IMG/VR virus record: IMGVR_UViG_2526164602_000011
Span: 1 to 26,099 of that record
Length of the DNA stretch: 26,099 nt
Source: a virus
Taxonomy: Duplodnaviria > Heunggongvirae > Uroviricota > Caudoviricetes
Direction: 5' to 3' (one strand)
Positions within the stretch are counted from its first letter, which is position 1; each line of letters opens with the position of its first letter. Made by a program: the position numbers. Positions 21,001-26,099 of the stretch are shown here, piece after piece.

Positions 21001-24000
21001 CTGCATGTGCAGATAAATTTACACAGGCAATCCCGGAGATTGCACACACAACCAGTGTTGCTATACTCTTCATTTAAGATATCCTGTATTCAGATAACAC
21101 GCTAAACTTTTTAATAATACATCTTTTTAGACATTTTAAATGAATATTAAAGACTCGCTTCAACTAATCATATACTGATGTATTAATAACCAGGACCTTA
21201 TCTATATACGGCTTTCGAATATCCCATGTTGCACCACCGGAATAATGCTCACAGGAATATATTTTATTTCCTGTAGCACCAGTGGATGTGGTATAAATCG
21301 GTCGATCATAAGGAGTTCTTTTCCAGTTATAATACCCGACCAGTGCAGGCATGATTGCGCATGGATATCCAAGGTCCTTTTCAAATTTGATATCAACAGG
21401 TATTAACTTCGCGTCAAGCAGCATCATTTCGCCATGATAAATCATCTCACCGTCCGGGTTATACATGGCGATACCATACTCAGAAGGTGGAGTAACCATA
21501 TTCGCGAAAGCATAAACCGTCGTAACACCAGGGTTCGTTCCCCTGACAATTACATGAAGCCTTAGTGCATGATATCCATCAATCTGTTCATGCGTGTACA
21601 TGACATCGGCCTTCTTCTCTGTTCTGATAAAGAAAAAACAACTTTTGCCTGACGGGATTGATGTTTTAAAAAAAGACTTTTCAGTCGCCGGTATGGTGCC
21701 TTTGTTGATCAGACACTGCGGCGTAAAACCTGGACTTATCCATACGCTGCCATCCGGCTTCATAATGCTCAAACCGTACATAACACTTATCCCCAGAATG
21801 TATAAATATAAGATCCCATACCCTGCTCAAGATTCGACCACGTCACCGTATTGTCATTAATGGTTATCTTCGGTACTTTCCGATCCGCAAATACATTATT
21901 CCAGGGAAATAAACAACATACAGCCTGCAATGATTTCCCGTCGGGTTTATTAGTGTACGTCTTTGAGCCAGACTCCGCTGTAAATCTGTCCAGGAAAAAT
22001 ACTGGAGTCAGCACGCCCGTAACATTAACGTTATTTCTGTTATAAATGGCAAAACCGTATTCCAATACTCACCTCCTGATCAGCGTAATCTGCCTATGCG
22101 AACAGCCAGTCGTCCATTCTGGTCATAAACCTCAATTTTATCATTGCGGATCACCAGTCCTACATTCTGATTAGAGTAACGAATTGTCAGTTGCCCTTGT
22201 GACGTAACACTGAAAAGGCCTCCAATATTCAGGTTACCCTGAGAATCAACCTGAAAGTTTCCGTTCTGAATAACGGCACTCCGGATAACTGGCGAAGTGA
22301 TACTTACCCCGGCTTTTACCTCATCCGCCACAACCTTCCGCGACACCAGTGTTTCAATCACCGCGTCATAAATCATCGCTTTCGGGATCACTACCTTGCC
22401 ACCTGATACCGCAAACGGATAGGCTGTGTTATCCGGATTATTCGGGTCAAAGACAAACAACTGCGACGCAGAAATTGCAACCTGACTTACAGGCCTGCCT
22501 TCACTGTCTTTTCCGGCGACAATCCCGATCCCCGCAGTGATACCATCAACTCCCGCTTTTTTTGACCACATTGCAAGAAAAGCTTCACCGCCTTCTTTAT
22601 CCAATTTAGTGATGCGCTTGTCGACCTCATTAAGCGATTCACTGGTTGACGAATCCAGTGTGCTAATGCGGGTTTCAATACCACCAATCGTTCTTGTCGT
22701 TTCTTCCCTGAGAGTCCCTACAACTTCGGTTGTCTTAATTGCAGCATCCTTTACAGCCTGCCCCTGCGCGTTTTTTATTTCTTTACGCAGCTCGGACACA
22801 ACCGGCGACTTTGCAGCCTCATCGCGGATCTGGTCAATGATGGCCTTCACGCCGATCTGTGTTTGTGCCTGAGTGCCTTTTTCAGCATTCCATGGACCTT
22901 TCACTCCTGCCGCGTTAACAAAACGTATCCAGTAAAATCCCGACCAGCCAGGGTCAACCGGATCGCCGTAAACCTGCCCCGGCGTCGTGGCAACCAGCAC
23001 TGCATCAGCAAGGTCATCCTCCGTACCCCGCCAGATTTCAGTCAGTGAATGTCCGCGATAATTAGGCATATCCCATTCAAGAAGAACCGAGCCAAATCCA
23101 CCGGTCGCCTTAAAATTCAGCGGTTTTGTGGGAAAATCAACAGTCATTAAAGTACTGTCAATCTCAATACCCGGATTCAGTGCATATGAGGCACCACCCG
23201 ATGTTCGACGCCGGGCGAGTTTAAGACCAACCAGTTCCTCACGGGTCACAAATGCGTGACGTCCGTCACCACGCTGCCCGGTGCCAATTTCCATATTCTC
23301 CACAACAGTGGATAAATCCTTCCCCGCACGCCACGGTTTTCTGGTCATACCGGCATCTCCGACATTGATGTACTCAGGGTTATTCGTTCCACCTGCCCGA
23401 ATCCGGATACCATCACCTGCCAGTTTTGCCCGGTTGCTGCCGGAAGTCTCACCACACTTCCCTTAAACGTACCCGGCGCAAAATGAATCACAGGAACATC
23501 ATCAGCCATAATGGTGATCCCCACCCGCTCAGGCGCCGGAGATTTCACCCTGATACAGGAAAAAGAGGTTCTTTCAGGTAATGAAAAAATTTTTGAATGC
23601 CACCTTATCGTGGAGGGCAGAGCCCCCCCGGCAAGCACTGACATTTTGTCTCCTGTCACCACGCGCATCATATCTTTCGCGAGATCAACCCATGCGCAGT
23701 CAAACGGTGTACTGAGATAACGGATATCCATGTTCACCGGACTGAATACAAACACATCCTGCTTACCATCCGGTTTCGTGTAACAGGCAATGTATTCACC
23801 ACGCCAGGGATAAGCCACAATGGAGGCCGGATTAAACTGACTCTGCCACTGTTCCGGTGAAACAATCTGTTCCGTCGCCAGCGCGACATTACCGTTTGCA
23901 TCAACAGACACCAGGCCATTTGTTCCTGCATACAGCACAAAACCCTCCATCGCAACCATACTCCGCCTGCTCAGACACGCCTGCATTGAAGGGATTTTGG

Positions 24001-26099
24001 AACCAGAAATTGTGGACGGTGATACCCCACTGAACAAATAAGGCTCCCCCTTTGTCGCCACCACCAGTGACGTTCCCAGCGGACAGATAGCTACAATATC
24101 TTCTGCCGTCGTGTGACGATTCACTTCCGGCCATGCATACGGCAGATACGCTTCCGAAAACATCACTTCATTACCGGCAAACCCGGCGGCAATACCGTTA
24201 GCCATCAGGCAAAGGCCTGTCATATTCTCTGGCGGCGGCAGGTAATCCCATGTCGCCAGGGAAGGCCCAAGGTTTTTCGCCGGTATTTTGTCCGTGTAAC
24301 TGAGCACGGATGCATCCAGTTCAGCCACAAGTAAAAAATCCGCCTCCCCTCCACCTGATGCAGAGCGATAAATCCGGCGACGTTTAATACTGGCATTCTG
24401 CAATGGCACCGGAGCCAGCGTCAGTTGTACCGCAGTTCCCGGAGTACGGAGTGTTACCTCCAGAGACGCCGGACCTGGCGGACCTTCTTCACCATAATCT
24501 GAGACAAAGGTTTCCGTATAAAACCGGGTTTCATCATCATTCGGGTTATCGTCAGAAACATCACCGCCCTGCTGAACAGTACAGACAGGAGCTGTCGTCG
24601 GCGCGGGGATCCCCAGACGATACGATGATGTCGGGTGATTCCCGTCCCCTTTTGTGGCAATAGTCGCATCCGTCACTTTAGGAAAACGCCCGTCAGTGTA
24701 GTAAATACGCCCGTGGGGGTCCTGAGCGATCGGACTGCGGATCACATCCACCACATCCGGCCATGCAAACCAGAAATCGTCACGGTAATGAAAAATTGTT
24801 TTTGGCTTAATTGTGAATGTTTTCTCAACCCCGGATATCTGACGTTCTGGTGTAATAACACCAAACCGGAAATGGCAGTCCTCCGCCAGTACAGCGGAAT
24901 GCTCGGGCAGCATGGATGTCACAACGCGCGGCATCATCCCACGCATCGTGGTGATATCGATATAGGGCATAGAAATTCCTTTGACTGCTTCAGGCTTAAA
25001 AATCAGGGGATTTATGATGGAATTCGCTAAAATCGCGATCGGCATCACTGAAACAAAATGCCTTGCATGACATTCTGATGATGACTAAATAACTTCATTG
25101 ATTATTGCAATTTTCTTTCGGTTTGGGGGAGCATATTGCTCCCCTTTTTTCACTGCATTATCATTGCCGCTGTAGCAACGAGAAGCATCACTCCGCACAC
25201 GCAAGATGTTTCACACTCACACCATACAGTCCATTTTTCGCCATTCCCGTATACAGAAAGCTATTCACTGTCTTCGTGTGAATTCCCATTTCACTGGCAA
25301 GGCGACATCATGTACCCCTTTCAATTTTTCCAGATTCAGCTGAATAAAACGGCGTCCCTGATACATACTGCGCATTAAATGGCCCAACTGACTATCACAG
25401 ATTATTAACCAGGATTCTTTACTATCCAGAATAATCCTGCGATTTTCCGGCATAAAAAACTCTTGAACCAGAATTACACGGCATCCTTCACTCCATCGTA
25501 TTAACATGTTTATTACTTCACTCTCTAATAACCCCCCCCTATACATGACAACAAAAACCGGAGCCGGGCTCCGGTTTTTGTGAAGCTGTCGGCTATTTCA
25601 TCCCGCCAATATTTTCCCACGTCCCGTCAGCACGCAGGATTTGCAGCGGTCTTACCACACACTGTATCTGCTTTTTATCTGCATCCAGTATCACCACCTG
25701 TGTGATTACCCTGTCCTGCTCCGGAATAATGCCATTCTCATCTGACTCCAGAATGTCTGCCGGTCCCAGTCGCAATTGTGCTGTAAGTGACCGTCCGTTT
25801 TCACAGTCATCATGCTTTCCGCAACCGCACAGACTCTGCATAAGCTTTCTCAAAATATTCATGTCATTCTCCTGTTCTGCCTGTATCACTGCCCACTTCA
25901 TCCAGCCCCTTGACATCCTGCCACGGCCCGTCACCAAACCTGACCTGCAAATGCTGAAAAAAACCCTGAACCCGTGTGGCATCTTTGGGGTCAAGAAAGG
26001 TCAGTCCGGTGATGAGTGCGCCATCTGTATCCGGGAACCAGCCATGGCTGTTTGTCTCAATAATGTTTCCCGGCCCCAGACGGAACCGTATTTGCGTCT

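Follow-up and report, generated by a model that had tools for sequence, protein, structure and literature searches.

A J-like central fibre and two YG-hairpin proteins at the short-tail tip of a 933W-type Shiga toxin podovirus: a probable receptor-binding cap

Introduction

In the podovirus DEV (Litunavirus), the genes gp56, gp55 and gp54 are all essential, mutations in gp54 suppress an lptD resistance allele and so identify gp54 as the LptD-binding protein, and in an AlphaFold 3 model docked in 8.5 Å density the gp56 trimer bears a single gp54 and a single gp55 at its tip (Nieto Noblecia et al., PMC12892993). In small siphoviruses, receptor-binding loci that adjoin gpJ set the terminal receptor specificity (BASEL, PMC8594841). 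For podoviruses of the 933W/phi24B type, neutralisation by purified BamA supports BamA as the receptor (PMC12502783). Here we analyse the tail-tip region of a phage of this last type, carried on a stretch of 26,099 nucleotides (nt) (IMG/VR record IMGVR_UViG_2526164602_000011; the whole stretch is called the window below). The region holds four genes for proteins of 541, 422, 92 and 205 amino acids (aa), which we call by the names of their 933W equivalents, L0124, L0125, L0126 and L0127.

The most direct structural information comes from phi24B. A preprint on this phage (bioRxiv 10.64898/2026.04.10.717836) describes, by cryo-electron microscopy (cryo-EM), gp57 as a hexameric nozzle beneath two dodecameric adaptor rings, and names the nozzle of Ralstonia phage GP4 as its closest relative (29% identity). 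The same text describes gp56 as a trimer anchored in the nozzle, with its N-terminal domain between the nozzle tip domains, a coiled coil at residues 167–260 and a C-terminal beta-prism; this needle is entirely missing from ejected particles. At the tip of the needle its authors saw additional, asymmetric density; they detected gp54 among the virion proteins and suggest that gp54, alone or together with gp55, binds BamA. Matusiak et al. 2025 had already proposed gp54 and gp55 as a receptor-binding complex at the tip.

Short-tailed phages that carry Shiga toxin (Stx) genes spread them via BamA, an essential and hard-to-mutate receptor; the phage protein that binds it is still unsettled, and the locus studied here holds the leading candidate. 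The module is already known: it was annotated, structurally described and bioinformatically interpreted for these proteins in papers of 2016–2026, the tip-cap proposal itself dating from 2025–2026. We favour, with reasonable confidence, the reading that the four genes specify the far end of the short tail, with L0126 and L0127 sitting on the fibre trimer as its receptor-binding cap, probably for BamA. Our additions are a family-wide pattern of one plus two YG hairpins, natural fusions of the small and the large protein, a profile link between L0127 and DEV gp54, a 92-aa start for L0126 that restores a hairpin absent from the 75-aa annotation, and a previously unremarked conflict with knock-outs in the phage Sp5.

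Results

Identity and conservation of the tail-tip region

The tail-tip region (3.9 kb) is 100% identical to those of 933W, VT2-Sakai and many other Stx-converting phages. It differs from phi24B at 2 nt in 3,885; the 422-, 92- and 205-aa proteins are identical in the two phages, and the 541-aa protein differs from phi24B gp57 at two residues. Owing to this near-identity, the published structural work on phi24B is directly applicable. The window thus represents a short-tailed Shiga toxin podovirus of the 933W/phi24B type (Sepvirinae/Traversvirus; phi24B is Traversvirus tv24B). All four open reading frames (ORFs) lie on the minus strand, at the positions where a first, sequence-only reading of the window had placed them (Table 1). 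The region is present in 420 of 5,426 complete Escherichia coli genomes, and the two-gene nozzle/fibre arrangement is intact in about 400 E. coli genomes and 183 phage records.

Table 1. Features of the tail-tip region and its downstream neighbour, in window coordinates
Feature	Position	Strand	Basis or remark
Tail nozzle gene, 541 aa (933W L0124, Sp5 ORF70, phi24B gp57)	23345..24970	-	8jov_A homology
Mechanical ORF of the nozzle gene, 567 aa from GTG at 25048	23345-25048	-	
ATGA overlap of nozzle stop (TGA) and fibre start (ATG)	23345..23348	-	Direct sequence reading, gccggtATGAccag
Central tail fibre/needle gene, 422 aa (933W L0125, Sp5 ORF71, phi24B gp56)	22080..23348	-	PF09327, phrog_31, 9ze4_N
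Straight-fibre match (Phage_Tail_Tip, PF09327), fibre residues 256-333	22350..22583	-	Pfam; aligns with lambda J 853-984
Fibre C-terminal hairpin, residues 403-418, KIEVYDQNGRLAVRIG	22095..22142	-	Same ending in DEV gp56, JenP2 J and PeterMerian J
Shine-Dalgarno AGGAGGT, 6 nt upstream of the 92-aa TTG	22071..22077	-	Direct sequence reading
Small tip protein gene, 92 aa (933W L0126, Sp5 ORF72, phi24B gp55)	21787..22065	-	TTG start; phrog_557
YG hairpin of L0126, residues 2-12	22030-22062	-	
Large tip protein gene, 205 aa (933W L0127, Sp5 ORF73, phi24B gp54)	21164..21781	-	Candidate receptor-binding protein; phrog_425
YG hairpin of L0127, residues 1-11	21749-21781	-	
YG hairpin of L0127, residues 101-111	21449-21481	-	
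lom (Ail/Lom outer-membrane beta-barrel gene)	20339..21073	-	PF06316, E 1.5e-32; directly downstream; context, outside the tip module

A J-like central fibre behind a podovirus nozzle

A phmmer search of the PDB matched the nozzle protein to one solved chain, 8jov_A, which is 577 aa long and present six times in its entry (E 8.6e-54, ~470 residues); residues 30–503 of the 567-aa form align with residues 4–460 of the chain. The 541-aa protein contains no Pfam domain, and a BLASTP comparison with lambda J returned nothing (best E 0.1). It is a hexameric tail nozzle, homologous to that of the GP4-type podoviruses, and its counterpart in Sp5, ORF70, is essential for tail formation (PMC5155283). 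We prefer the ATG at 24970 to the GTG that opens the mechanical ORF because an AAGGA Shine-Dalgarno site lies 7 nt upstream of it, the alignment with GP4 starts accordingly, and RefSeq calls the 541-aa form. The protein falls in phrog_511, labelled 'internal virion protein', a label that looks misleading.

The 422-aa protein has a single Pfam match, to PF09327 (E 6.5e-11; 42.6 bits, where the cut-off is 22), and its residues 71–389 match phrog_31, 'central tail fiber J', at E 2.6e-24. By BLASTP, its residues 251–389 align with lambda J 853–984 (E 3e-4), and a weaker alignment joins residues 131–194 to J 779–855 (E 0.048). The expectation that similarity to lambda J would be confined to this protein therefore holds. 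The sequence-only reading had further placed the match in the fibronectin type III (FN3) region of J and given the protein a different C-terminus, and neither point survives. The solid match is to the straight fibre, and none of the fn3, Ig_J or Ig-FN3-like middle domains (PF24421, PF24489) has a Pfam match in the fibre even at E<=10. For the middle domains there is a weak similarity, seen in the alignment of residues 131–194 and in the phrog_31 match, which starts at residue 71. As for the C-terminus, Pfam finds in lambda J the FNIII-A and Phage-tail_3 domains, two immunoglobulin (Ig)-like domains and the C-terminal receptor-binding domain PF12421 (residues 1001–1132), whereas the 422-aa protein simply terminates where J's fibre domain terminates, and PF12421 is absent from it. 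The hub domains FNIII-A (PF24801) and Phage-tail_3 (PF13550) are found in neither the 541-aa nor the 422-aa protein, again even at E<=10. The prediction that receptor specificity would be unlike that of lambda is supported, as these phages use BamA rather than LamB (PMC12502783).

A closer relative of the fibre is DEV gp56, a 429-aa gpJ-like fibre, which it matches both as the solved chain 9ze4_N (E 1.8e-12) and by BLASTP (E 5e-16, residues 77–422 against 29–428). The likeness reaches the extreme C-terminus, where IEVYDQNGRLAVRIGRL stands against IKVFDQAGKLRVHIGNL in DEV. The 422-aa protein is thus a trimeric J-like central fibre, or needle, that has neither the hub domains nor the receptor-binding domain of J; for nozzle and fibre alike, homology and the literature on the identical or nearly identical phi24B proteins agree on identity and oligomeric state. 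In siphoviruses, a single long J gene (874 aa in JenP2, 1,192 aa in PeterMerian) has the equivalent fibre segment as its C-terminal part. The podoviruses 933W and DEV carry the same fibre module behind a different N-terminal domain, an arrangement that reflects module shuffling and not a split gene.

A likeness to the small proteins' YG hairpins, described below, is seen in the fibre's last hairpin, IEVYDQNGRLAV, and this likeness recurs in DEV, JenP2 and PeterMerian (e.g., TISVRDANGQL compared with GISTWDANGKY). Motif profiles ranked this C-terminal hairpin as their best match, yet E was 0.006–0.014 over 10–11 columns; the likeness is not significant because NG and DG turns are generic. We propose that this hairpin is the docking platform for the cap proteins.

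Two small proteins, a corrected start and natural fusions

L0126 matches phrog_557 over its full length (residues 1–92; E 1.7e-35) and L0127 matches phrog_425 (E 4e-81). Neither protein has a match in Pfam or NCBIfam, including the chaperone domain Caudo_TAP (PF02413), so that they are not tail-fibre assembly chaperones. PDB sequence searches with the 92-aa protein, the 205-aa protein and a 62-sequence profile of the L0127 family returned nothing meaningful. Inspection of the sequences, with no dedicated predictor run, revealed no signal peptide, lipobox or hydrophobic segment in either protein (N-termini MEYGFAIYNRNN and MYGLSIMKPDGS). The PHROG labels of the two families (557 and 425), 'outer membrane protein' and 'membrane associated protein', look wrong for this reason.

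In the 933W and phi24B records the small protein is annotated as 75 aa from an internal GTG (L001 14624–14851; L009 13878–14105). A TTG located 51 nt upstream gives the 92-aa form, restoring 17 N-terminal residues that include the YG hairpin (window 22014–22065). We take the longer form to be right, given the AGGAGGT in front of the TTG, the PHROG 557 coverage from residue 1 to 92 and an N-terminus that is kept in homologues down to 65% identity; it is also the form used by Sakai, RefSeq and PHROG 557. Any published model built on the 75-aa form would lack this hairpin and may have suffered for it, which could explain poor models of the complex.

An exhaustive profile search with the 205-aa family recovered 112 cluster representatives, most of them 200–235 aa long and matching from residue 2–3. 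In about ten members of 307–325 aa (~315 aa), the match begins near residue 100, and the extra N-terminal domain is homologous to L0126 (hhalign probability 95.3%, E 2.4e-8). The small and the large protein therefore occur naturally fused. One fusion gene begins at the stop codon of a J-like fibre gene, with stop and start overlapping, and that fibre itself matches DEV gp56 (E 2e-8).

With tblastn, L0127 homologues were found adjoining siphovirus J genes in JenP2 (61% identity), many Drexlerviridae (~44%) and PeterMerian. JenP2, a Nonagvirus siphophage, holds the closest non-Stx homologues of both small proteins (L010 5217–6115), adjoining J and convergent with it. Separately, a 408-aa protein (P0144) gave a weak match to the L0127 profile at positions 117–162 only; it consists of about five near-identical tandem repeats of ~70 residues and is probably unrelated to the L0127 family or an assembly oddity.

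One plus two YG hairpins

The sequence-only reading had described a motif, [EM]YG[FLI][AS][IM]..PDG, with one copy in the 92-aa protein and two in the 205-aa protein, and had suggested a small repeat-based accessory family. In its strict form the motif occurs twice in the six-frame translation of the window, both times in the 205-aa protein (residues 1–11 and 101–111), so the two full copies stand. The 92-aa protein carries only half of it: EYGFAIYN is followed by RNN, and the PDG that was counted lies 32 residues further on, outside the motif. Three copies of the core YG[FLI][AS][IM] stand in the two proteins where 0.004 are expected, and 0 of 20,000 composition-preserving shuffles reached three. 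No DNA-level repeat underlies the protein motif.

Beyond these sequences, residues 1–29 and 101–129 of the L0127 family are related to each other (hhalign local probability 86.7%, E 4.4e-6), and seven of the 13 most conserved positions in the family fall within the two hairpin segments. DEV has the same layout: gp55 starts with MSYGFRFYDANG, gp54 with MTYGIKL, and WGMQVFDADGNG occurs at gp54 residue 114. Motif profiles cross-match between the phages, the second-copy profile with the N-terminus of gp55 (E 1.3e-5) and the first-copy profile with the second copy in gp54 (E 3.7e-4). The 1+2 pattern, in which the small protein has a single copy and the large one has two, is found together with the conserved fibre C-terminus in 933W, DEV, JenP2 and PeterMerian. 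A repeat-based family is thus supported by the internal repeat, by the recurrence of the 1+2 pattern in four unrelated phages and by the fused forms. In the accessible part of the phi24B/933W tip literature, we found no description of this repeat.

An AlphaFold 2 model of L0127 is all-beta (pLDDT [predicted local distance difference test] 88.7), and in it the motifs form beta-hairpins (strands 4–7/13–16 and 105–107/113–116). Its confidence is lowest at these hairpins, with block pLDDT of 55–56 for residues 1–20 and 76–83 for residues 101–120. A model of the fusion protein has low confidence at residues 1–17, 94–107 and ~190–210, the heads of its three units. The YG motif heads each of three beta-sandwich units, one in L0126 and two in L0127. 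Foldseek with the L0127 model against viral models (BFVD) returned 20 significant phage proteins, including one from Pseudomonas phage vB_Pae_AM.P2. In the same run, proteins of 93–97 aa superposed on one half of L0127 with template modelling (TM) scores of 0.53–0.64, normalised to the small protein, at a nonsignificant E of 0.16–0.27.

Homology to the DEV receptor-binding module

Gene order and sizes agree between the two phages, 422-92-205 aa here and 429-99-223 aa for gp56-gp55-gp54 of DEV, which lie in one operon. Comparing the 62-sequence L0127 profile with DEV gp54 by hhalign gave a probability of 95.5% and E 1.5e-8 over 124 columns, with both motif copies in register, and L0126 and DEV gp55 share the N-terminal motif. 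Together with the fibre match, these comparisons show the three-gene module to be homologous, the link between the small proteins being a weak one. The DEV gp54 suppressor positions 37, 85, 181 and 186 (PMC12892993) lie outside the hairpins.

Neighbouring genes and natural insertions

In the 933W record the order is L0124, L0125, L0126, L0127 and then lom, with the portal, capsid and lateral-fibre (L0121) genes upstream of L0124 and a gene for a 2,806-aa protein downstream. Downstream of lom stands a clean hairpin with a T-run that resembles a terminator (window 20297–20315, minus strand), and no comparable site lies between the 205-aa gene and lom. The 2,806-aa ORF (window 8321–16741, minus strand; 933W L0134, Sp5 ORF80, phi24B gp47) is essential for tail formation in Sp5; in phi24B, gp47 is abundant in virions and invisible by cryo-EM, and the authors of the preprint propose that it is an ejection protein. 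Elsewhere in the window, Rfam identified the sok antitoxin RNA of the hokW/mokW locus (6982–7156, plus strand; 113.5 bits) and the lambda cIII thermoregulator element (926–984, plus strand; 88.5 bits).

Insertions of IS1203 interrupt the tail-tip genes in some prophages. One lies inside the 205-aa gene and splits it in E. coli O157:H7 F8952 (L012 695–1908), with a junction unique among the 5,426 genomes. In a series of UK O157:H7 isolates of bovine and human origin, a second sits at the nozzle gene's 5' end and shortens the annotated protein to 533 aa; it was located in strain Z563 (L013 4155–5368) and, as judged by identical match descriptions, in 13 other UK Z strains. Phage PA52 probably carries an IS1203 insertion in the tail tip too. 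These insertions look like natural knock-outs of the tail tip of Stx prophages.

Discussion

A proposed tip architecture

The architecture that we propose runs from the tail outward. L0124 forms the hexameric nozzle, and L0125 the homotrimeric central fibre, whose N-terminal domain plugs the nozzle lumen. From the DEV and phi24B descriptions, we infer that one copy each of L0126 and L0127 would cap the trimer tip, giving receptor binding in trans. L0127 is the probable receptor-binding protein, and its most likely ligand would be the essential outer-membrane protein BamA. Each cap unit, one in L0126 and two in L0127, starts with a conserved YG...(D/N)G beta-hairpin; the three hairpins may dock the asymmetric cap onto the three fibre chains, leaving the variable sandwich bodies to bind the receptor. 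Once the receptor is engaged, the needle would come away from the nozzle, and the channel would open to the ejection proteins and DNA. More speculatively, and at a confidence that falls short of even, the three hairpins, split between the two proteins or in tandem in the natural fusions, might act as a pseudo-threefold adaptor stacked on the three fibre C-terminal hairpins (KIEVYDQNGRLAVRIG), turning a C3 tip into a single asymmetric receptor-binding head that could engage a beta-barrel monomer, for instance BamA or LptD. For modelling and mutagenesis of the tip, concrete handles come from the 1+2 pattern of hairpins and from correcting the L0126 start to the 92-aa form.

Several observations weigh against parts of this architecture. 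The comparison of L0126 with DEV gp55 is weak: across 76 columns E is 0.006, and across the first 12 residues it is 0.001. L0126 compared with the halves of L0127 is marginal by Smith-Waterman (z 2.5–3.2) and nonsignificant by profile (E 0.016–0.017), and we therefore claim only that the N-terminal hairpin is shared, not a third copy of the whole domain. Against the PDB, Foldseek with the L0127 model found nothing at E<=0.001, only the three-module C-terminal domain of PCSK9 at low TM (0.25–0.31). The putative docking role of the hairpins draws on how conserved they are and on their low pLDDT when single chains are modelled. The tip density of phi24B comes from low-resolution negative stain with no protein assigned, and gp55 went undetected by proteomics. 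That L0127 would itself bind BamA is a prediction, and earlier work had named the lateral fibre (L0121/gp61) as the BamA binder.

The most serious difficulty comes from Sp5. Mondal et al. 2016 made in-frame deletions across the Sp5 late region and gave primers for individual deletions of ORF72 and ORF73; plaques or lysogens on K-12 MG1655 depended on nine ORFs, namely 60, 61, 62, 65, 67, 70, 71, 79 and 80 (PMC5155283). The nozzle ORF70, the fibre ORF71 and the lateral fibre ORF67 are inside this set, and ORF72 (92 aa) and ORF73 (205 aa) are outside it. If the 43 mutants assayed included the ORF72 and ORF73 deletions, which is what the primer list implies, a rough K-12 host does not call for the cap proteins. 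Such dispensability sits badly with an obligatory role in BamA binding and differs from the situation in DEV.

Alternative explanations

Because of the Sp5 conflict, we keep as a sizeable rival, though one we think unlikely, that the tip cap is real and does not bind BamA: the lateral fibre (L0121/gp61) or the needle would bind BamA, and L0126 and L0127 would serve an alternative or auxiliary receptor, for example in host range or on smooth strains. The Sp5 essential set, which includes the lateral fibre and not the two cap genes, fits this explanation, and both Smith 2007 and Mondal 2016 attribute BamA binding to the lateral fibre. However, the phi24B authors argue that a shaft as long, flexible and collagen-like as that of the lateral fibre is unable to pass on a trigger signal, and they note that BamA is not recognised by a related fibre tip in lambda_2B8. 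Moreover, in every characterised relative, the gene pair beside the J-like fibre sets the terminal protein receptor (DEV gp54 and LptD; the BASEL loci). A cap that binds BamA remains our preferred reading for these proteins. Considerably less probable still is that L0126 and L0127 are not tail components at all and act as non-virion accessory products, whether membrane-associated morons, superinfection-exclusion factors or fibre-assembly chaperones. Their PHROG labels do point to membrane products, both fall outside the essential set in Sp5, they lie directly upstream of the lom moron, and gp55 was not found in the phi24B proteome. Against this stand the lack, by inspection, of a signal peptide, lipobox or hydrophobic segment and of any chaperone domain, the presence of phi24B gp54 in the virion proteome, the homology of L0127 to the virion receptor-binding protein DEV gp54, and the fusion genes that directly follow a fibre gene with stop and start overlapping.

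The idea from which the sequence-only reading set out, a single J-like fibre split across the 541- and 422-aa genes, with a frameshift or sequencing artefact as one possible cause, has next to no chance of being correct. All that speaks for it is the ATGA overlap, which is indeed present in the sequence as first described, and the J N-terminal part missing from the 422-aa protein. The upstream protein is a full-length nozzle homologue with no J-like region, the two-gene arrangement is kept in hundreds of independent genomes, DEV carries the same free-standing fibre of 429 aa, and cryo-EM of phi24B resolves two separate proteins of different symmetry, a hexamer and a trimer. The split-J idea therefore fails: in siphoviruses the module sits at the end of one long J, and in podoviruses it sits behind an N-terminus that plugs the nozzle.

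Comparison with known systems

Set against systems described elsewhere, the four genes resemble different phages in different parts. With Ralstonia phage GP4 (8JOV chain A), the window shares the hexameric nozzle, homologous over ~470 residues and in both cases on a T=9 podovirus; GP4 differs in carrying another fibre set. The receptor-binding protein of Oekolampad on LptDE (9RPT), tried as a candidate fold for the fusion-protein model, has a similarity to it (TM 0.40/0.46, Foldseek probability 0.38) that is too weak for a shared fold, and there is no sequence-profile match.

Small siphoviruses (Drexlerviridae, Dhillonvirus, Nonagvirus) share the pair of a small and a large gene beside a J-like gene, with the same hairpin pattern in JenP2 and PeterMerian, and differ in having long tails and a full-length J. 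In the BASEL collection, the receptor-binding locus of the Nonagvirus phages JenK1, HdK1 and HdsG1 matched no known receptor (PMC8594841). These phages could be BamA users if they carry the JenP2-type allele; we found no literature on BamA use by the Nonagvirus phages with the closest L0127 homologues.

With lambda gpJ, the likeness consists of the PF09327 straight-fibre domain and a weak similarity in the preceding Ig/FN3-like domain, and extends to the function of a trimeric central fibre that triggers ejection. In lambda the receptor-binding domain is within J, whereas in phages of the 933W type separate proteins supply receptor binding instead.

The closest parallel is DEV, which has in common with the window the three-gene operon, end-to-end homology of the fibre, remote homology of the large protein, the 1+2 YG-hairpin pattern and a target that is an essential protein of the outer membrane. 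DEV binds LptD and its genes are essential, whereas the receptor proposed here is BamA and both small genes fall outside the essential set of Sp5. The DEV fibre also stands beside a separate plug protein, gp74, in an N4-type tail, whereas here the fibre itself plugs a GP4-type nozzle.

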